DNA of 64,000 nt from Pseudomonas phage PaBG. Position numbers and translations under genes: made by a program. Below the pieces are notes generated by a model, which was given only the letters and a program-made list of their open reading frames with translations, was not told the origin of the DNA and did no database searches. Each line of letters starts with the position of its first letter. Position 1 is the first letter of the stretch. Positions 18,947-58,388 of the stretch are shown here, piece by piece. The stretch lies in the sequence record KF147891.1, one strand, 5' to 3'.

Positions 18947-20158
18947 TTACTCGTCGTCATCATCCCAGGCAGATTTCTTGCCCTTGCCGGATTTCTTCGA
19001 CTTCTTGTCCTTGGTGGATTTGTCGGACTTGGACTTCTTGCCCTTGTCAGACTTCTTGGACTTCTTCGGAGCTTCGTCCTCGTCGTCATCAGACGATTTC
19101 TTGGACTTCTTGGCCTTCTTCTTGGGCTTGTCGTCCTCGTCATCATCGTCGTCCGACTTGGACTTGGACTTCTTGCCCTTCTTCTTGGGCTTGTCATCCT
19201 CGTCCTCGTCGTCATCATCGTCGCTGAACGCCGGCTTGGACTTTTTCTTCTTCTTGGGCTTGTCGTCTTCGTCGTCATCGTCATCGGAGAACGCTTTGGA
19301 CTTCTTCTTGCCCTTCTTGCCTTTCTTCGGCTCGTCATCGTCACCGAGACTGTAGCCGTCACCGTCGTCGTCATCGTCCGGAGTATCACCGCCGACGATT
19401 TCCATGCGCTTGAAGTCTTCCAGCGCTTGCTTGGCGTCCATGCGGCCGGTGACATCGAGCAGGGTTTCGTCGAGCTTCCAGACCAGATATGCCTTCTCGT
19501 CGTCGGTGAGCGGAGTGCGCTCGTCCTTGTCGATGGAATACTTGTCGGTACCCGGAGCCTTCGGCTTGAACTTGACACGAATGTCGCAGCCGTACTTCTC
19601 GTGCGTCACGTCGAACGCTTTCTTGGCGCCGGACTTCTTGTCCTTGGCGGTGTTGCCTTCGCCGATCTCTTGGATACGGCTCGCCATGGTGGAAGTGAAG
19701 CGGCAGACGCGCACCGGAGTCCAGGACTTCGAGCGGATGTCCTTGAAGCCGGACTTCTTCTCTTCCTTGGTGTGCTCTGCCTTCTTGCGCGGCTCATCTT
19801 CCTGCAGCTCGCGGATGATGGCGTTGCCCAGGTAGAAGAACTCGTAGCGAGCGCTGCCGTCCTTGCCGTGAGTCAGGTCGCAGTACGGGCACTTGACTTC
19901 TTTGCCCTTCGCGTCTTTGCGCGGCTCGCCTTCGTGGTTCGGGTCGAACGCGATGCAGTAGCGCGGGATGGTGATTTCTTTCTTTTCCTTACCAGCAAGG
20001 ATGCTGATCCAGTGACGCTTCACTGGCAGAATCTTGCCGGGCAGGCAACGAATCTGCGACCACTCGTCAGCCGGAAACTTGTGCAGTTCGATCACTTCAT
20101 CCAGCTTGACCGAATCCTTGTTACCGGTGCGTGGTTGGAGAGTTCCAAATCCACTCAT
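18947..20158 (-). CDS. gp32-like ssDNA-binding protein with long block-polyampholyte C-terminal tail
   Basis: The core reads IRCLPGK...RYCIAFDPNHEGEPRKDAKGKEVKCPYCDL, a C/H/C/C zinc motif with spacing like T4 gp32 (IRFLPSK...). The C-terminal roughly 170 aa alternate D5-8 blocks with K-rich blocks, for example DDDDDEDDKPKKKKKSKPAFSDDDDDEDEDDKPKKKGKK. Confidence 0.65.
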   Translation of the reverse strand: MSGFGTLQPRTGNKDSVKLDEVIELHKFPADEWSQIRCLPGKILPVKRHWISILAGKEKKEITIPRYCIAFDPNHEGEPRKDAKGKEVKCPYCDLTHGKDGSARYEFFYLGNAIIRELQEDEPRKKAEHTKEEKKSGFKDIRSKSWTPVRVCRFTSTMASRIQEIGEGNTAKDKKSGAKKAFDVTHEKYGCDIRVKFKPKAPGTDKYSIDKDERTPLTDDEKAYLVWKLDETLLDVTGRMDAKQALEDFKRMEIVGGDTPDDDDDGDGYSLGDDDEPKKGKKGKKKSKAFSDDDDDEDDKPKKKKKSKPAFSDDDDDEDEDDKPKKKGKKSKSKSDDDDDEDDKPKKKAKKSKKSSDDDEDEAPKKSKKSDKGKKSKSDKSTKDKKSKKSGKGKKSAWDDDDE

Positions 20159-24995: not shown

Positions 24996-25604
24996 TCAAT
25001 CCAGGTCGTCGAAGTCCTCGAAGTCGTCATCCGACTTCGACTTCTTGTCCGCCTTCTTGGACTTCTTGCCTTCGGCTTTTTCAGCCTTGGCCTTCTTGGC
25101 TTTCTTGTCCTTCTTGGACTCGGCCTTGGCCGACTTGTCGGACTTCTTGCCTTCGGCTTTCTCGGCCTTGGCTTTCTTGTCCTTCTTCACCGGCTTGTCG
25201 GCCTTCTCGGCTTTCTTGGACTTCTTGCTGTCGCCCTTGTCAGCCTTGGCTTTCTTGCCTTCGGCCTTCTCGGCCTTGGCCTTCTTGTCGGACTTCTTGC
25301 CTTCGCCCTTGGCCGGCTTGTCAGCCTTCTCGGCTTTCTTGGACTTCTTGCCCTCGGCTTTCTCGGCCTTGGCTTTCTTGTCCTTCTTGGCCGGCTTGTC
25401 AGCCTTGGCCTTCGCCGGAGCGGCGGCGCCGTCAGCAGTCAGCTTCTCGACGGCCTTGATCTGGGCTTGGGTGCCTTTCAGGCTTTCCTGCGCGGTCTTG
25501 AGCGCTTTCTCCAGGGCAGCAACGGTGCCCTTGGCAGCACGTTCTTCCTTACGCAGGCGGGAAACTTCCTGCTTCTTGTTGATGAGTACGTCGTTCTTGG
25601 CCAT
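24996..25604 (-). CDS. histone H1-like lysine-rich protein (coiled-coil N-terminus, KAEKAEGKKSKK repeats, acidic C-terminus)
   Basis: Start at MAKNDVLINKK. Roughly 150 aa carry repeated AKAEKAEGKKSKK units, and the protein ends DDDFEDFDDLD. Confidence 0.6.
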   Translation of the reverse strand: MAKNDVLINKKQEVSRLRKEERAAKGTVAALEKALKTAQESLKGTQAQIKAVEKLTADGAAAPAKAKADKPAKKDKKAKAEKAEGKKSKKAEKADKPAKGEGKKSDKKAKAEKAEGKKAKADKGDSKKSKKAEKADKPVKKDKKAKAEKAEGKKSDKSAKAESKKDKKAKKAKAEKAEGKKSKKADKKSKSDDDFEDFDDLD

Positions 25605-25793
25605 GTTCTTCGATTCCAGATTTGGAGGAGTAAAGGGAGCTGCTTCTATGAGCACCCGACTTGTTGAGCAACTATGAATTAGCGTGCTCAGATTTTACGA
25701 CCGAGACGCAAACTTTGTTTACGCCTCGGGTGACGCTTAGGAAGGTGCGGCCGCTCGCATGTTGCTAGGCCGCGCGCCTACCGGGCCGAGGTA

Positions 25794-26246
25794 TCAGTCG
25801 AAGTCTTCTTCGTCTTCTTCGTCTTCTTCCTCGTCGTCGTCTTCTTCTTCCTCGTCGTCCTCGTCCTCGTCCTCGTCGTCGTCCTCGTCGTCGTCATCTT
25901 CCTCGTCGTCGTCTTCTTCTTCCTCGTCGTCTTCCTCGTCGTCCTCGTCCTCGTCGTCTTCTTCCTCGTCGTCCTCGTCGTCGTCCTCGTCTTCTTCTTC
26001 CTCGTCGTCCTCGTCCTCGTCGTCTTCTTCCTCGTCGTCCTCGTCTTCTTCTTCCTCGTCGGACTCATCGTCCTCCTCGGTCACGTCGGGAGCCTGCTCG
26101 GCGACGAGTGCGATGGCCTCGTCGATGGTGTCGGCACCGGCTTCCTTCATCTGTTGCAGCAGCGAGAGCAGCGCGATGGCCAGGCCGGCGGTCAGGTCGA
26201 AGTTGATTTCTTTGGCTTTGGACTTGGTGGATTTCTTCTTGGCCAT
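25794..26246 (-). CDS. poly-acidic protein (about 100-residue Asp/Glu tract)
   Basis: Start at MAKKKSTKSKAKEINFD with a TGGAG Shine-Dalgarno. A short helical domain is followed by a continuous D/E tract encoded by a roughly 270-bp (GAN)n trinucleotide run. Confidence 0.6.
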   Translation of the reverse strand: MAKKKSTKSKAKEINFDLTAGLAIALLSLLQQMKEAGADTIDEAIALVAEQAPDVTEEDDESDEEEEDEDDEEEDDEDEDDEEEEDEDDDEDDEEEDDEDEDDEEDDEEEEDDDEEDDDDEDDDEDEDEDDEEEEDDDEEEDEEDEEDFD

Positions 26247-49594: not shown

Positions 49595-50233
49595 TTAGGA
49601 CTTCCGCCGGCGCTTCTTGGTCTTTTTCTGCTTGGGTAAATGCGCAGGCAGAAAGTTGATCGGAGGTGCAGAGGACAATGCCTTGAGTAGTTTCGCCTCT
49701 TTCTCGCGTGTATCGATGAAGGAGAAAGGACGCACACCCAGCAGCTTGCAGCCGACGTAGATGCCGAGCAACATCGAATCCAGTTGGTGGATGGCGATCT
49801 TGGTCAGCTTCTCTTTACGCAGGTCAGCAAGGTCAAGGTACATTTCCTTCAGGTCGGCGTATCGATTGAACTCGTTCTTCCACACACCTGCCGTGATGAA
49901 GTCGGCGTTCTTGATGTGGTTAGACTGCTGAGCCATGCAGCCCAACATGCAGTTCACGGACTCAATCGTTGGACCTTTACCGCCACGAGCTTGGAAGCGC
50001 TCTGCTACAAACGCATCCAGATTCTCAACCTCGAACAACGGTTGGACGTAATCGCGGAACGTATTCAACGAACTCCGCATGGTCTTCATATCTTTCAGCA
50101 GACGCTGCGGATCAAGCATCGTCGTGCCTTCGCACTTGAACTGGAATCGGTTGTTTGCCCATCGCAAGCGCATGATCGACACTGCGAAATTGGATGTTCC
50201 TGGGTCCATTGCGAGAATGCGCAGATCAGTCAT
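49595..50233 (-). CDS. RuvC-like Holliday-junction resolvase with basic C-terminal tail
   Basis: Start at MTDLRILAMDPGTSNFAVSIM with a GAAGGAGTG Shine-Dalgarno; this N-terminus is the RuvC-family motif (IlGIDPG...G). The C-terminus reads KQKKTKKRRRKS. Confidence 0.55.
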   Translation of the reverse strand: MTDLRILAMDPGTSNFAVSIMRLRWANNRFQFKCEGTTMLDPQRLLKDMKTMRSSLNTFRDYVQPLFEVENLDAFVAERFQARGGKGPTIESVNCMLGCMAQQSNHIKNADFITAGVWKNEFNRYADLKEMYLDLADLRKEKLTKIAIHQLDSMLLGIYVGCKLLGVRPFSFIDTREKEAKLLKALSSAPPINFLPAHLPKQKKTKKRRRKS

Positions 50234-50324
50234 TGCATCACTCCTTCGAATATGAGGGCAAATAACTATCTCATGGTTCGCAGCTCGGTCGTGTAATTTA
50301 CTCACAGATTCGGAGGAACAACCA

Positions 50325-51446
50325 ATGGCAATCAAACGAGGCACGAACACGATCCGCCGCGAACACGCTCGGAACTACACGCACGTTCAGGCGCAAAAGA
50401 GGCTGGATGAGGCAGTGGCTCCGTTCAATCGGCAGGTCGAAAACTCGCTGGCTGTGGATGCAGTAGAAATCGACTACTACCACATTCAACAGAAGACAGG
50501 CATCCCGTGCACCTGCGAGAAGGTGGCACTTGAGCCGCTGATCGACGACCTGGAAGAAACCAACATCCCGCCGATCATCCCAACGGCAGACGATGACAAC
50601 ACAGGCATCAAGGTCAAGTTTCAGGACGACGAAATCTTCGGTGACAGCATCGCCGAGAAAATCTTCAACGACGGGCCTGATACCATTATCGATGTCACAG
50701 GAGACAGCGGCCGTTCGACGTTCCAAGAACTCAAGGCCATGGGTGAGGACAACTTCGCCGATGGGCTACTCGGCGGAGGAAGTGTCGATTGTGGCGTGTG
50801 TTACCGTACAGGCTTCCAACCGCCGTACAAAGCATACGGCAAGCAGCGTTTCATCTTCACCAATTATCAGATCGAAGGTGCTAGTGGGTACCGAGTAAAC
50901 ACCACAAAGCAACCTCACACAATCGAGCGGCATTCGCCGAGCACGCCAGGCTACGTCATGTTCAAGACGCTGGTGCCGAAGTATTTCGTGTCGTTGACCT
51001 ACAGCATCCGAGATAACCTCGTGTATCTGGTCAGCGACAAACTGTTCCGTACCGACGGCGAGCCGTTGCGTGCAGAAGACGTGCGGTCGTTTGCCGGACG
51101 TGAAATGGAGTTCTTGGTCAAGGCTGAGTGCTTCACGCACATTGTCCTTGAGTTTGAACTCGACGTACCAAAGCTGCTGGCGAATATCAGCGGGGAAGTT
51201 GCGGCCCTTGACTACGAGCGGCTGGTGACCATCGGAGACATCAACGTCATCCTACCGCCGTCACTCGCCGAAGTCGAGAACGGGGACATTCTCATAATCA
51301 AGAAACGCAACCTGGCATTGAAGGTGCGCGATAAGGACCGCAAGATCACGGCAGACAAACGTCGGCTGGAGTGGAGCGTTTCTACTCGCGTGCTGCAACC
51401 AACAGAGGCACTGCGCAACATTGCCGCAGGCTTCAAGCTCTACTGA
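50325..51446 (+). CDS. hypothetical protein
   Basis: A GGAGGAACAACCA Shine-Dalgarno; 373 aa. Divergent from the RuvC-like gene. Confidence 0.6.
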   Translation: MAIKRGTNTIRREHARNYTHVQAQKRLDEAVAPFNRQVENSLAVDAVEIDYYHIQQKTGIPCTCEKVALEPLIDDLEETNIPPIIPTADDDNTGIKVKFQDDEIFGDSIAEKIFNDGPDTIIDVTGDSGRSTFQELKAMGEDNFADGLLGGGSVDCGVCYRTGFQPPYKAYGKQRFIFTNYQIEGASGYRVNTTKQPHTIERHSPSTPGYVMFKTLVPKYFVSLTYSIRDNLVYLVSDKLFRTDGEPLRAEDVRSFAGREMEFLVKAECFTHIVLEFELDVPKLLANISGEVAALDYERLVTIGDINVILPPSLAEVENGDILIIKKRNLALKVRDKDRKITADKRRLEWSVSTRVLQPTEALRNIAAGFKLY

Positions 51447-52152: not shown

Positions 52153-52160
52153 TTCCTGCG

Positions 52161-52197
52161 AAAACCCGAGTAGTGCTCTGTGCCTGCTCGGGTTTTT
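52161..52197 (+). terminator. rho-independent terminator
   Basis: AAAACCCGAGtagtgctctgtgcctgCTCGGGTTTTT. Confidence 0.6.
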
Positions 52198-52199
52198 CA

Positions 52200-53629
52200 T
52201 TTTGGGCGTCATTGGCGATTTCTGGTACAAGACGCCATTAAGATAGCGCAGACCCAGTGATCTGCGGAAACGTCCTAGAGGATGCGATTCAAGGAAACGC
52301 GCCGCGATGACCCCGTACGCCTGACAAGGCATAACGTAGGTTCGTTTCTTCGCAAAGTGCCCTGCTTTTCCTGTGTCAGTCACACTCGTTCAAACGCCCG
52401 TTTGAAAATATTTTTCGTCGATTGATCACTTTTTGTACAGCATTTTTGTGACCACGGATTTGGTAAAATGGCAGGTCCTACGCAGCGGGGCGCCATCAGG
52501 TTACAACCTTCCGTACGTTTTTCGCAAAGGTGCAAGGTTTGACTACTGATTGCAGTAGCGGACGATTCCGCAAAACACGCATTCTATGCGAAGGACCTAG
52601 TGAAACTTGCGAAGGACCTGCCGTTCTGCGGAAACGCAAAAATCGGAGCACTCGTTTTGACTACTGATTGCAGTAACAGATTCGTGTGGGTAGCATGTGA
52701 CCGAAAAAGGACCCACCTAAAGTCGAGACCTTTTGCACATAGGATTACCACGGGGCGGTCCTACGGCATGGCATTTCCCGTGACCATCGACCTCGCTGGA
52801 GAGCGCGTAGAATCTAGCTTCCAGAGCGGTTGGTGAAAAAATGTCCAACCTGTCCAAAAAATAACCAAAAAGCAGGGAAATCGAAAAAATGGATAGTGTC
52901 AAGTACCACGAAGTTACTTCGCATCTTCTCCTTCCAGTCTCTTCCAGTCAAGCTGACAAGCTCGTCTCGTCCCTCGCCTCCCTCTCGTACAACTTCGTCG
53001 CTCACCAGTGTGGTTAACTCGCATCACAGGATTACTCCAAGCGGAGCGTTAGCGTAGCGCAGGAGAGAATTGAAGAAGGCTTTCGCCGCAGGCGAAACGC
53101 GCAGAGCGCCAGCGATGCGCCTTACGCCTCTGCAATTCCCTGTGCGCAATGGCGACGATTAAAGAGCGCGGATGCTTACTTTGCCTCATTTAGCAGTGAT
53201 GCAACGTAAGCGTCTTCGCTCAAGTATCTGGGTACAAGTCTGCTTCCTTACCTCACGGAGTGAGCAGGTCGCCTGCGAAACGACGTTTTCCGAAATTTTC
53301 TGGATGAACAGGACACACTGGATGGGAGCCTTGGGAGTCTGGGTCGTCGCACATAGACACTTAGGAGTTCGCTGGCGCTCACTCCTTGTGAGCTTCGCTC
53401 ACGGAATTTCTTTAGCCTACGGCAGGAGTCGCTGCGCTCCTCTGGTTCGCTGGCGCTCACGGGTGACGCTCATAGACTACCGGACGTTCAAACGGCGAAG
53501 CGAGCTGGCGCTCAAACGCCAAGAGCATATTCCGCCCCGCCCGCCGCCGGATTCCCGCCGGAAACTGTGAAAATAGTTTGCACGCCACAATAAACGCCGG
53601 GCGAAAGCCTCGCAATAAGGACATCGAAC
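52200..53629. promoter_or_regulatory. 1.4-kb non-coding, lower-GC region with several direct-repeat families, palindromes and an AT-rich core (origin-like / regulatory hub)
   Basis: No convincing ORF on either strand. TTGACTACTGATTGCAGTA occurs twice (about 52540 and 52651) and contains the palindrome TACTGattgCAGTA. TGCGAAGGACCT occurs twice in tandem (52593, 52609). CTGCGGAAACG occurs twice, and TTCGCAAAG occurs twice. GTTCGCTGGCGCTCA occurs three times (53380, 53449, 53507). An AT-rich stretch lies at 52390-52470. Confidence 0.5.
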
Positions 53630-55451: not shown

Positions 55452-56098
55452 TGGAAAACTTCCTCACGCACGACGACATCGTAACCTTCTTCTCGGACAT
55501 GGATGTCAGCGTGCAAATCCTGCAGCAACACCAGGGTTCGCAGTACACCGACATCAACGGCCAGCAGGCTGTCGCTGCGTTCGCAGAGTTCAGCGGTCAC
55601 ATTCCTTTCCCGAACACTGACGGTGATCTGCGCGAAGCGGCCGCAGCGCTCAAGCGCAAACTGCGCGAAGCTCGTGGCGACGCCAACACCGTACTGGTTC
55701 GTTCCATGGTCGCCACCTCGGCACCCACAGGCGTGTCCTTGTTCGCACACTGCGCCTTCGTCAAGGCCTTCGTCGAAGTCGATCCGCGCACTGAGCGCGT
55801 TCGTCGTTTGGTTGAGCGCGGCGAGTGCTGCAACGTCGGCGATGTGGCTCACGCTCTGATCCTCGGCTATCGCTGCGCCCGACCTACGTGGGAGAACGAT
55901 GCGTTCATCTACCTGCAGAACGCGAGCGAGTTCAAGGTCAATCGCGCACCTCTGCTCGGTATTTTCCCCGAGGGCACCAACATCAAGTTCGAGGCGCACA
56001 TCGATCAGTACCAAGACGACGGCAGTGTTCGCGTCTGGTCGCCGAGTGTTGCCGACATCCTGGCCACCGACTGGATCATCCTGGCTCACGAAGTGTGA
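55448..56098 (+). CDS. hypothetical protein
   Basis: ATGA coupling and a GGAGAC Shine-Dalgarno; 216 aa. Confidence 0.55.
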   Translation: MMENFLTHDDIVTFFSDMDVSVQILQQHQGSQYTDINGQQAVAAFAEFSGHIPFPNTDGDLREAAAALKRKLREARGDANTVLVRSMVATSAPTGVSLFAHCAFVKAFVEVDPRTERVRRLVERGECCNVGDVAHALILGYRCARPTWENDAFIYLQNASEFKVNRAPLLGIFPEGTNIKFEAHIDQYQDDGSVRVWSPSVADILATDWIILAHEV

Positions 56099-56227
56099 CA
56101 GCCGAAGTCGAAAATGCTAATTGACTAAGCACTGAAAAGTGTAAACAAAGTTCACTGGTCACTGCGAGTGCGTCGGAAGTCCCCCGACATTCAACCGATG
56201 CCCACACTCCTCGCAGTGATCCTTTTT

Positions 56228-56303
<76 letters not shown>

Positions 56304-58294: not shown

Positions 58295-58388
58295 GACCCA
58301 GTAGCTCAGTTGGTAGAGCGCGTGAACGCCTGCGCCGATAGCGGGAGTAACGTCATAGAGGTCGAGAGTTCAAATCTCTCCTGGGTCT
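58295..58388 (+). tRNA. aberrant tRNA-like gene (94 nt, extra roughly 20 nt between D-arm and T-arm; identity unresolved)
   Basis: Perfect 7-bp acceptor (GACCCAG/CTGGGTC), canonical D-arm GCTCAGTTGGTAGAGC and T-arm GAGAG-TTCAAAT-CTCTC. The 43-nt middle does not fold into a standard anticodon arm plus variable loop; a possible CCTGC-GCCGATA-GCGGG arm would need 8-9 extra nt. Confidence 0.4.

Follow-up and report, generated by a model that had tools for sequence, protein, structure and literature searches.

What is the function of a long gap between two plus-strand genes of the Pseudomonas jumbo phage PaBG (genome, 258 kb; record KF147891.1)? In the 64-kb stretch of this genome that was analysed, hereafter called the window, the gap occupies positions 52153-53629. 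An earlier note on this DNA took it for a replication origin built of iterons and an AT-rich unwinding element, and named operator arrays and small-RNA genes as alternatives. We propose, with a probability of about 0.65, that the gap represents a non-coding locus of composite build, conserved in PaBG-group jumbo phages, in which control DNA on the left is joined to a gene for a large structured RNA on the right.

Conservation of the gap

Relatives were collected through the flanking proteins, an alignment of the 373-amino-acid (aa) protein encoded upstream, and conserved DNA motifs. Scans of IMG/VR for close relatives with the two flanking proteins found none; the 373-aa alignment and the DNA motifs succeeded. 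The resulting set comprised 12 phages in three clades, PaBG and 11 further contigs (named L006, L020 and so on where they must be told apart), and the order of 149-aa gene, gap and 268-aa gene is common to all 11. The 268-aa protein encoded directly to the right of the gap is identical to PaBG gp160, and its homologues in the 11 relatives share 52-86% identity with it. In 11 of the 12 phages the gap measures 1436-1477 nucleotides (nt), the exception being a gap of 1085 nt, and no gene is called in it consistently across the set. Aligned with MAFFT, the gaps display sharp conserved peaks with variable DNA between them, and their non-coding blocks are conserved better than the flanking proteins; place and length of the gap are maintained although the identity of those proteins is as low as 52-60%. 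Three near-identical contigs (99.5%, 99.0% and 97.4% identity) were also found. Megablast and blastn searches with the gap against a phage collection, evidently one without PaBG, gave no match, and the published description of the PaBG genome is silent on the region.

A predicted structured RNA in the right half

From about 52905 to 53410-53530, the right half of the gap is predicted to encode a large structured non-coding RNA on the plus strand with at least seven hairpins. RNAalifold predicted the helices independently, and they were examined by explicit pair counts, 500 shuffles and controls with slid partners. The hairpin at 53246-53268 was 98% paired across 12 sequences, with four pairs changed on both sides; the three helices at 53364-53423 were 95.9% paired across 12 sequences, with double changes at nine of 13 pairs; and the 18-bp hairpin at 53170-53215 was 95.2% paired across seven sequences, with eight double-change pairs. 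No shuffle out of 500 was as good in any of the three cases, and slid partners paired at only 33-44%, 30-48% and 29-44%, respectively. Model R2 matches the first of these hairpins in every PaBG-group locus searched. In group B, a GACCC-UUCG-GGGUC tetraloop hairpin replaces the last of the elements listed for the 3' part (Table 1), and tetraloops of the GNRA (GAAA) and UUCG types recur, as do GAA and GCA triloops.

The earlier note had counted three copies of GTTCGCTGGCGCTCA among its iterons. Two exact copies are present (53367 and 53445); the supposed third, GAGCTGGCGCTCA at 53502, has three mismatches, a tolerance at which the window holds six matches against 3.4 expected, near chance. In one of the three helices at 53364-53423 this repeat is the loop of a hairpin whose stem reads GGUAU/AUACC, GGCAG/CUGCC or GGUGA/UCACC in relatives, while the loop keeps UCGCU-N-CGCUC. 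Because the stems covary, we read the GTTCGCTGGCGCTCA copies as RNA structure rather than as repeated protein-binding DNA.

The strand of the RNA is indicated by the kinds of pairs. Many pairs of the covarying helices are G-U or U-G and few are A-C, and sliding RNAalifold on three subgroup alignments, a noisy measure, returned 84, 127 and 97 covarying pairs on the plus strand against 60, 66 and 75 on the minus strand. Since G-U is common, A-C is rare and the plus strand leads in all three subgroups, the RNA is placed on the plus strand.

Two complementary families of loop motifs run through this half. Purine-rich motifs of the form GAGCG-N1-2-AGCGA (X) are confined to the 5' part (53041-53120 in PaBG), and their complements UCGCU-N1-2-CGCUC (Y) lie 250-450 nt downstream of X. 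In PaBG, L020, L033, L006 and Lu11, a covariance model built on the Y module (R1) gives a match to the X module, on the opposite strand. One X loop of PaBG is fully complementary to two Y loops over 12 nt, with unrelated stems, and the centre of the complementarity differs between lineages (CC:GG or A:U). These loops may interact by pairing or have a binding partner.

None of the 4227 models of Rfam 15 matched the window at its gathering score. With E up to 10, only chance-level matches appeared in the gap. The gaps of Lu11, HRDY3 and L007 gave nothing; the families without a match include GOLLD, ROOL, HEARO, 6S, tmRNA, RNase P and introns, and ARAGORN reported no tmRNA. A role as an Rsm/Csr sponge was considered and set aside: GGA is enriched (z 2.7-3.1) only in PaBG, L022 and L027, with z 1.8 in L024 and -1.1 to 1.5 in the other eight phages. 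The earlier suggestion of small-RNA genes survives for the right half except in the matter of size, as the predicted RNA is large (about 0.5-0.65 kb).

Promoter motifs and probable extent of the transcript

Promoter-like sequences of phage type lie on both sides of the structured stretch. The window contains 12 sites that match AAACTGTAAA with at most one mismatch (expected number, 2.4), always on the strand of the local genes; the sites include 53562, before the 268-aa gene, and 56136, before tRNA-Thr. The depositors of Lu11 annotated the same motif, which reads AAAACTGTAAA in the Lu11 group, as a middle/late promoter. The site before the 268-aa gene, which would serve the downstream operon, is conserved as ACTGTGAAAAGTTTG in relatives. 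To the left of the structured stretch, an A-tract block, its A-tracts phased, and a promoter-like site are conserved in 12/12 phages; the site resembles AAACTGTAAA and corresponds in place to the AAAACTGTAAA of the Lu11 group. Directly after them comes the 22-mer CACGAAGTTACTTCGCATCTTC, identical in 10/12 phages; L027 has a single substitution and L006 has four. These elements support a plus-strand transcript start near 52905-52915, with a promoter arrangement found in both the PaBG and the Lu11 group; the 3' end would lie at about 53410-53530.

Putative control elements in the left half

The most conserved element of the gap is an 18-bp palindrome, TTCAAACGCCCGTTTGAA, written as TTCAAACG-NN-CGTTTGAA, whose arms are invariant in 11/12 phages and whose two central bases vary. 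It is present in a single copy in the window; its pattern occurs once, at the same place, in 11/12 phages and nowhere else in 460 kb of loci. TTCAAAC-N4-GTTTGAA is a DNase-footprinted site of PsrA in the P. putida rpoS promoter, and the PsrA consensus is C/GAAAC-N2-4-GTTTG/C (PMC13104628). The phage 18-mer fits both. When bacterial genomes were scanned with the 18-mer pattern, the matches listed covered more than 120 loci, with no Pseudomonas among them. Twelve were inspected; in seven of them the pattern lay upstream of an unambiguous neighbour, at a distance of at most 270 nt. Two of these genes encode TetR_N/TetR_C_30 regulators, and the other five encode FadB, a thiolase, an acyl-CoA dehydrogenase, an ETF-ubiquinone oxidoreductase and a thioesterase (7/7). 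Judged by their products, the seven genes are those of the fatty-acid degradation regulon of PsrA-type repressors. The scan supports the class of the operator, not a specific host.

A hexamer of the form TATNNT stands exactly two bases after the operator in 10 aligned relatives, and L033 has a duplication at this point. It is a plausible -10 element for host RNA polymerase, which would give a rightward promoter with the operator over its -35 or spacer. A terminator scan found no plus-strand terminator from the PsrA box to 53386, so that read-through from such a PsrA-gated promoter into the structured RNA is possible. The same PsrA-type palindrome was also seen at 2376-2393 of L034, an unrelated viral contig of 11 kb, where its intergenic position is promoter-like and tandem GCACGATGAGCGAGGATCGA repeats follow at about 2500-2600; other phages may also use a PsrA-type host operator.

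A second palindrome is specific to the gap. The 19-mer TTGACTACTGATTGCAGTA occurs twice, as the earlier note had reported, at 52539 and 52657, although not at its 111-bp spacing: the copies start 118 nt apart, with 99 nt between them. No chance match to this 19-mer would be expected even with three mismatches. The palindrome ACTGATTGCAGT is nearly confined to the gap, and the ACTGAT..CAG(T) site has 23 matches in 17 kb of gaps against two in 169 kb of flanking DNA. Each phage carries one to four irregular copies at spacings of 18-405 nt, and 22/23 share one orientation. A universal copy lies at gap +390 to +431 in 11/12 phages; the exception is L006, whose only copy, at +222, is the inverted one. 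The second copy takes the PaBG-like place in group A, L020 and L033 and the start of the gap in group B. This palindrome is presumably the site of a dimeric DNA-binding protein. Its TACTG...CAGTA arms resemble LexA half-sites, but their spacer is 4 nt rather than the 10 nt of the LexA consensus, and a LexA box was rejected.

Other repeats named in the earlier note are present: TGCGAAGGACCT at 52587 and 52608, CTGCGGAAACG at 52262 and 52626, and TTCGCAAAG at 52349 and 52521. The 12-mer and 11-mer repeats were confirmed, and a 9-mer occurring twice in 1.4 kb is at chance level. At the place equivalent to 52587-52619, other phage groups carry different repeats, for example one of 43 nt in L007. 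The AT-rich core and A-rich runs (52401-52460 and 52836-52895, each 32% GC against 55.4 ± 5.4% in the window) are indeed the two most AT-rich stretches of 40-60 nt in the window, and the first is conserved at 0.7-0.9. The lower GC content ascribed to the whole region applies to the left half (49.5%) and not to the right (55.1%, equal to the window mean).

The invariant inverted repeat CTGGA-N21-TCCAG has zero covariation, and its pairing is lost wherever flanking positions vary; it is therefore taken to be a DNA-level element. None of the symmetric elements of the left half covary, which points to action of all of them at the DNA level. The suggestion of operator arrays or a regulatory region fits the left half, with its PsrA-type operator, gap-specific palindrome, inverted repeat and promoter motifs. 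An 11-nt inverted pair, TTTTTGTACAG at 52430-52440 and CTGTCCAAAAA at 52850-52860, brackets a palindrome-bearing segment of about 410 bp in most relatives; read outward, its members resemble the CTGT-A-rich promoter motif and could be divergent promoters. A sigma-54 promoter at 52470 was dismissed, as it is not conserved in L022, and no IHF, Anr or DnaA boxes were seen by eye.

Comparison with known systems

Outside the PaBG group, a close counterpart is the stretch that follows the homologue of the 149-aa gene in Lu11 and HRDY3. Like the PaBG gap, it has a promoter of this type (AAAACTGTAAA in the Lu11 group), hairpin-rich DNA, GAGCG-N-AGCGA motifs and a C-rich 3' tail. Gaps of the Lu11 group are 610-750 nt long and consist of a terminator, the invariant AAAACTGTAAA and then conserved DNA of about 450-500 nt, rich in hairpins, with covarying stems and X motifs. 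Unlike PaBG, this group is without the PsrA box, the AT-rich block, the ACTGAT palindromes and the Y loops. Within the conserved part of Lu11 that follows AAAACTGTAAA and is rich in hairpins (L001, 12000-12548), two small ORFs have been annotated, gp131 (65 aa) and gp130 (43 aa); these are probably not genes. More distant relatives, L008 (11912-13148) and L014 (7786-9201), have gaps of 1.2-1.4 kb with X and Y motifs and no PsrA box, and may be intermediate forms of the locus.

GOLLD and ROOL are large phage RNAs supported by covariation, often found near tRNA islands and held together by kissing loops (PMC12286853). The predicted PaBG RNA resembles them in its size above 0.5 kb, its many covarying hairpins, its tRNA-cluster neighbourhood and loops that could kiss. 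It differs in failing their Rfam models, in belonging to Pseudomonas jumbo phages and in lying 2.6 kb and four genes away from the tRNAs. As judged by these features, it is closest in kind to GOLLD and ROOL and a member of neither family.

For the left half, the closest parallels are bacterial. PsrA operators are found in the Pseudomonas rpoS, psrA and fadBA5 promoters, and the phage 18-bp palindrome is identical in pattern to the P. putida rpoS site and falls within the PsrA consensus; in contrast to these operators, the candidate phage box stands in a lytic jumbo phage with no adjoining protein-coding gene. The rsmZ-type promoters that Humair et al. reportedly described in 2010 have an upstream activating sequence (UAS), a bent linker and auxiliary PsrA. 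The PaBG arrangement is similar: a predicted non-coding RNA gene stands after a UAS-like inverted repeat, A-tract or bent DNA, and a PsrA-type site. Unlike rsmZ, the gap has no GacA box, and an Rsm-sponge role is unsupported, GGA being enriched in the PaBG subgroup only.

Alternative explanations

A replication origin would have to lie in the left half, where the AT-rich core would unwind and the palindromes and direct repeats would bind a phage initiator, perhaps with transcript priming as at T4 oriF/oriG or in T7. Origins made of a promoter and AT-rich DNA are known from T4 and T7, and the gap shares with these, and with iteron origins such as lambda ori and plasmid oriV, AT-rich DNA with repeated or palindromic sites on its flanks and replication genes nearby. 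It is conserved and single-copy, it holds the two most AT-rich stretches of the window, and it lies 2-3 kb from a divergent strand switch beside primase, RuvC-like, nuclease and topoisomerase genes; each phage group has left-half direct repeats of its own, as co-evolving iterons would be expected to. Against this, the right-hand iterons (53367-53514) are loops of hairpins that covary across 12 phages, there is no array of at least three or four phased direct repeats of about 17-22 bp, and the palindrome comes in one to four irregular copies. The strongest invariant element is an operator for a host transcription factor, no initiator-like neighbour was recognised among the adjacent proteins, and the Lu11 group keeps the RNA part without the AT-rich, palindrome-bearing left half. 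Cumulative GC skew over these 64 of 258 kb has a shallow maximum at 52710 and no minimum in the gap, and is uninformative at this extent. The gap is probably no replication origin, and the left half, the only part that remains a candidate, is a rather improbable one.

Nor is a gene for the RNA the only way to account for the structured stretch. It could belong to the downstream operon as a very long 5' leader acting in cis, by attenuation, antitermination or stability, as it lies on the same strand as, and directly upstream of, that operon in all relatives. The hairpin at 53388-53402 with its U-rich tract resembles an attenuator, no strong terminator ends the RNA, and no separate promoter is visible before the next gene in the Lu11 group. 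In the PaBG group, however, the well-conserved promoter motif at 53562 stands between the structured part and the gene, 500-650 nt with at least seven hairpins is far above the size of known bacterial or phage leaders, and no cis-regulatory family of Rfam matched; we consider a leader possible but unlikely. Covariation and G-T wobble would equally fit folded single-stranded DNA, in the form of primosome-assembly or single-strand-initiation signals or of cruciforms, and mini-hairpins of the GCGAAGC type, which appear here in the minus-strand reading, are very stable as DNA. Yet both phage groups have a conserved promoter motif immediately before the structured stretch, the UUCG and GNRA tetraloops are typical of RNA, and known single-strand-initiation signals measure about 100-150 nt rather than 600 nt, which leaves this explanation very improbable. 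Equally remote is a missed protein gene. Open reading frames (ORFs) of 42 aa (52889-53017) and 132 aa (53172-53570) do exist, relatives share short peptide similarities, and the Lu11 annotators put their two small ORFs in the syntenic stretch. But the 132-aa ORF, the only long one, is frameshifted by a 1-nt deletion in a 97.4%-identical variant, L020, L006 and L033 have no ATG for the 42-aa ORF, and none of the ORFs keeps its start, frame or length across the 12 phages, C-termini differing as well. The peptide similarities come from conserved DNA that matches equally in two plus frames and one minus frame, and the region of the conserved 22-mer amounts to seven codons without a synonymous change in 10/12 phages, the changes in L027 and L006 not falling at third positions. 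The earlier judgement that the region has no credible gene is thereby borne out for the whole of 52153-53629.

A model of the locus

The reading that we prefer, control DNA followed by an RNA gene, would work as follows. The left part, about 52200-52900, would be transcription-control DNA with an exact operator for the host TetR-family fatty-acid regulator PsrA, TATNNT, palindromes, an inverted repeat and phased A-tracts. The RNA would be transcribed from a phage-type CTGT(C/A)AA promoter and perhaps also by read-through from the PsrA-gated promoter, and its purine-rich GAGCG-N-AGCGA loops (5' half) and complementary UCGCU-N-CGCUC loops (3' half) would serve in mutual pairing or in binding a partner. 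A separate promoter at 53562 would start the downstream operon with its Tad2-like gene and tRNAs. Our best guess is a stable RNA during infection, its level tied to the fatty-acid or stationary-phase state of the host. A bolder and doubtful version has an ornate RNA of about 0.6 kb with X-Y kissing contacts within or between molecules, as in ROOL and GOLLD, whose synthesis would be gated by a captured PsrA operator; the phage would then read the fatty-acid or stationary-phase state of its host to set the output of the RNA and possibly of the anti-defence and tRNA operon.

Several observations weigh against this reading. The alignments hold only 7-12 sequences from three clades, so that the cell counts overstate the number of covariation events, and minimum-free-energy z-scores of single sequences, which were not used as evidence, are weak (plus strand, -1.8; minus strand, -1.55). 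X-Y complementarity is imperfect or interrupted in several relatives, and the Lu11 group has X motifs only. The proposed RNA promoter of PaBG, ATAGTGTCAA, has three mismatches to the phage motif; no convincing -35 accompanies TATNNT beside the PsrA box, and a scan with the sigma-70 consensus finds no promoter in the gap. At the other end, the hairpin at 53388-53402 with its interrupted U-tract is a poor terminator, and conserved hairpins run on to about 53520. Profile searches with nhmmer gave no significant link between the PaBG group and the Lu11 group proper, the only matches being weak syntenic ones in L008 and L014 (E 1e-3 and 4e-3), so that homology of the two groups rests on synteny and motif content. 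The Lu11 group also has no second promoter between the structured stretch and the next gene, and its RNA could therefore be a leader. What the analysis shows is a conserved gap lacking a conserved ORF, covarying helices and their strand, a palindrome with the pattern of the PsrA operator, and a promoter motif that is enriched and consistent in strand. The existence, ends, abundance and role of the RNA, the loop-loop pairing, PsrA binding, and the choice of the promoter that PsrA would control are all inferred from sequence.

Gene neighbourhood and other observations

The switch from minus-strand to plus-strand genes, which the earlier note had placed directly after the region, lies upstream of it: minus-strand genes extend to about 50.3 kb, the switch falls between the RuvC-like resolvase and 373-aa genes, and three plus-strand genes, the 373-aa gene first, precede the gap. 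The tRNA cluster, said to begin right after the region, begins at 56228, 2.6 kb downstream, in an operon of the 268-aa gene, the Tad2-like anti-defence gene and tRNAs. The terminator hairpin to the left of the region is present where it had been noted. Given its A-run and T-run, it could act in both directions, and relatives carry equivalent terminator hairpins, differing in sequence, at the same place. The 373-aa protein shares 46% identity with proteins of Lu11 and HRDY3. No recognisable function was found for the neighbouring proteins, save the Tad2-like anti-defence protein three genes downstream. Individual features are listed in Table 1.

Table 1. Features of the gap and its surroundings, in window positions
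Feature	Position	Strand	Remarks
RuvC-like resolvase gene	49595-50350	minus	
373-aa gene	50325-51446	plus	
Gap	52153-53629		Between stop of 149-aa gene (52152) and ATG of 268-aa gene (53630)
Intrinsic terminator of upstream operon	52161-52196	plus	Stem AAAACCCGAG.../...CTCGGGTTTT; A-run before, T-run after
Conserved block GTAGGTTCGTTTCTTCGCAAAGTG	52336-52359		Contains first TTCGCAAAG copy; conserved in 10/12 phages
PsrA-type operator TTCAAACGCCCGTTTGAA	52389-52406		TTCAAAC-N4-GTTTGAA pattern
Most AT-rich stretch of window	52401-52460		4 standard deviations below window mean GC
-10-like hexamer TATTTT	52409-52414	plus	TATAAT, TATATT or TATAGT in relatives
TTGATCA	52422-52428		Near-invariant; inside AT-rich stretch
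TTTTTGTACAGC	52430-52441		Near-invariant; inside AT-rich stretch
Operator-like site TTGACTACTGATTGCAGTA	52539-52557	plus	Core palindrome TACTG-ATTG-CAGTA; universal copy
Direct repeat, TGCGAAGGACCT twice	52587-52619		Group-specific; complementary to 52467-52484
Second TTGACTACTGATTGCAGTA copy	52657-52675	plus	
Inverted repeat CTGGA-N21-TCCAG	52796-52826		Invariant; UAS-like; upstream of predicted RNA promoter
A-tract block	52836-52903	plus	CTGTCCAAAAAA (52850-52861), AAAAA, AAAAAA; second most AT-rich stretch of window
Promoter-like site GGATAGTGTCAAG	52891-52903	plus	GGATACTGTCAAC or GAAACTGTCAAT in relatives
22-mer CACGAAGTTACTTCGCATCTTC	52907-52928	plus	Likely 5' end of RNA
5' module	53041-53120	plus	Hairpin presenting GAGCGTTAGCGTAG; carries X loop motifs
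Hairpin TTTCGCC-GCA-GGCGAAA	53081-53097	plus	Compensatory changes in CGCC/GGCG stem
Hairpin GCGCA[GAGCGCCAGCGA]TGCGC	53099-53120	plus	Group A: five covarying pairs, no broken cell
Interrupted 18-bp hairpin GGAUGCUUAC...GUAAGCGUCU	53170-53215	plus	Many G-U pairs
Hairpin CCUU-ACC-UCAC-GGA-GUGA-G-CAGG	53246-53268	plus	Conserved AAGUCUGCUUCC before
Hairpin GGAGU[UCGCUGGCGCUC]ACUCC	Within 53364-53423	plus	Loop is the GTTCGCTGGCGCTCA repeat
Hairpin GUGAGC-UUC-GCUCAC, then U-rich tract	Within 53364-53423	plus	Terminator-like scan match at 53386-53404
Hairpin GCC-UAC-GGC	Within 53364-53423	plus	
Further Y elements GGAG[UCGCUGCG]CUCC, GGUUCGCUGGCGCUCACGG, GCGAGCUGGCGCUCAAACGCC	53425-53520	plus	Conserved motif positions
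Promoter of downstream operon GGAAACTGTGAAAATAGTTTGCAC	53560-53583	plus	AAACTGTAAA with one mismatch; C-rich tract 53530-53550 before

Some features of the surrounding DNA deserve record. Within the Tad2-like gene, 55543-56065 is a dense patch of substitutions common to two strains otherwise 99-99.5% identical, which suggests recombination or diversifying selection on the anti-defence gene. At 56100-56107, a 97%-identical strain, L005 (3098-3373), has about 270 extra bases with a 94-aa ORF; they sit between the Tad2-like gene and tRNA-Thr, an indel hotspot beside the anti-defence gene. The tRNA-Ala at 58295-58388 is 94 nt long, has its anticodon at position 37 and reaches only 48.9 bits with Rfam, where the other four tRNAs score about 70-76; an insertion or intron, or an odd structure, is possible. 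Elsewhere, AT skew reaches -0.43 at 19001-20000 and -0.60 at 25001-26000, far outside the rest of the window, with a GC skew of -0.14 in the latter segment as well.

Implications

For annotation, the analysis removes a probably false origin candidate, flags small ORFs of Lu11 as likely mis-annotated, and offers the AAACTGTAAA motif as a guide to the transcription units of PaBG. Large structured phage RNAs such as GOLLD and ROOL are rare, and the PaBG RNA would add to them a family unrelated to either. The phages concerned, PaBG and probably also Lu11 and HRDY3, are jumbo phages of Pseudomonas that can be cultured and are tractable for genetics and structure work. We know of no described case in which a perfect host PsrA operator is conserved in a lytic jumbo phage. 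If the model is true, a virulent phage would have wired a metabolic sensor of its host, responsive to long-chain fatty acids and linked to the RpoS network, into its own programme.

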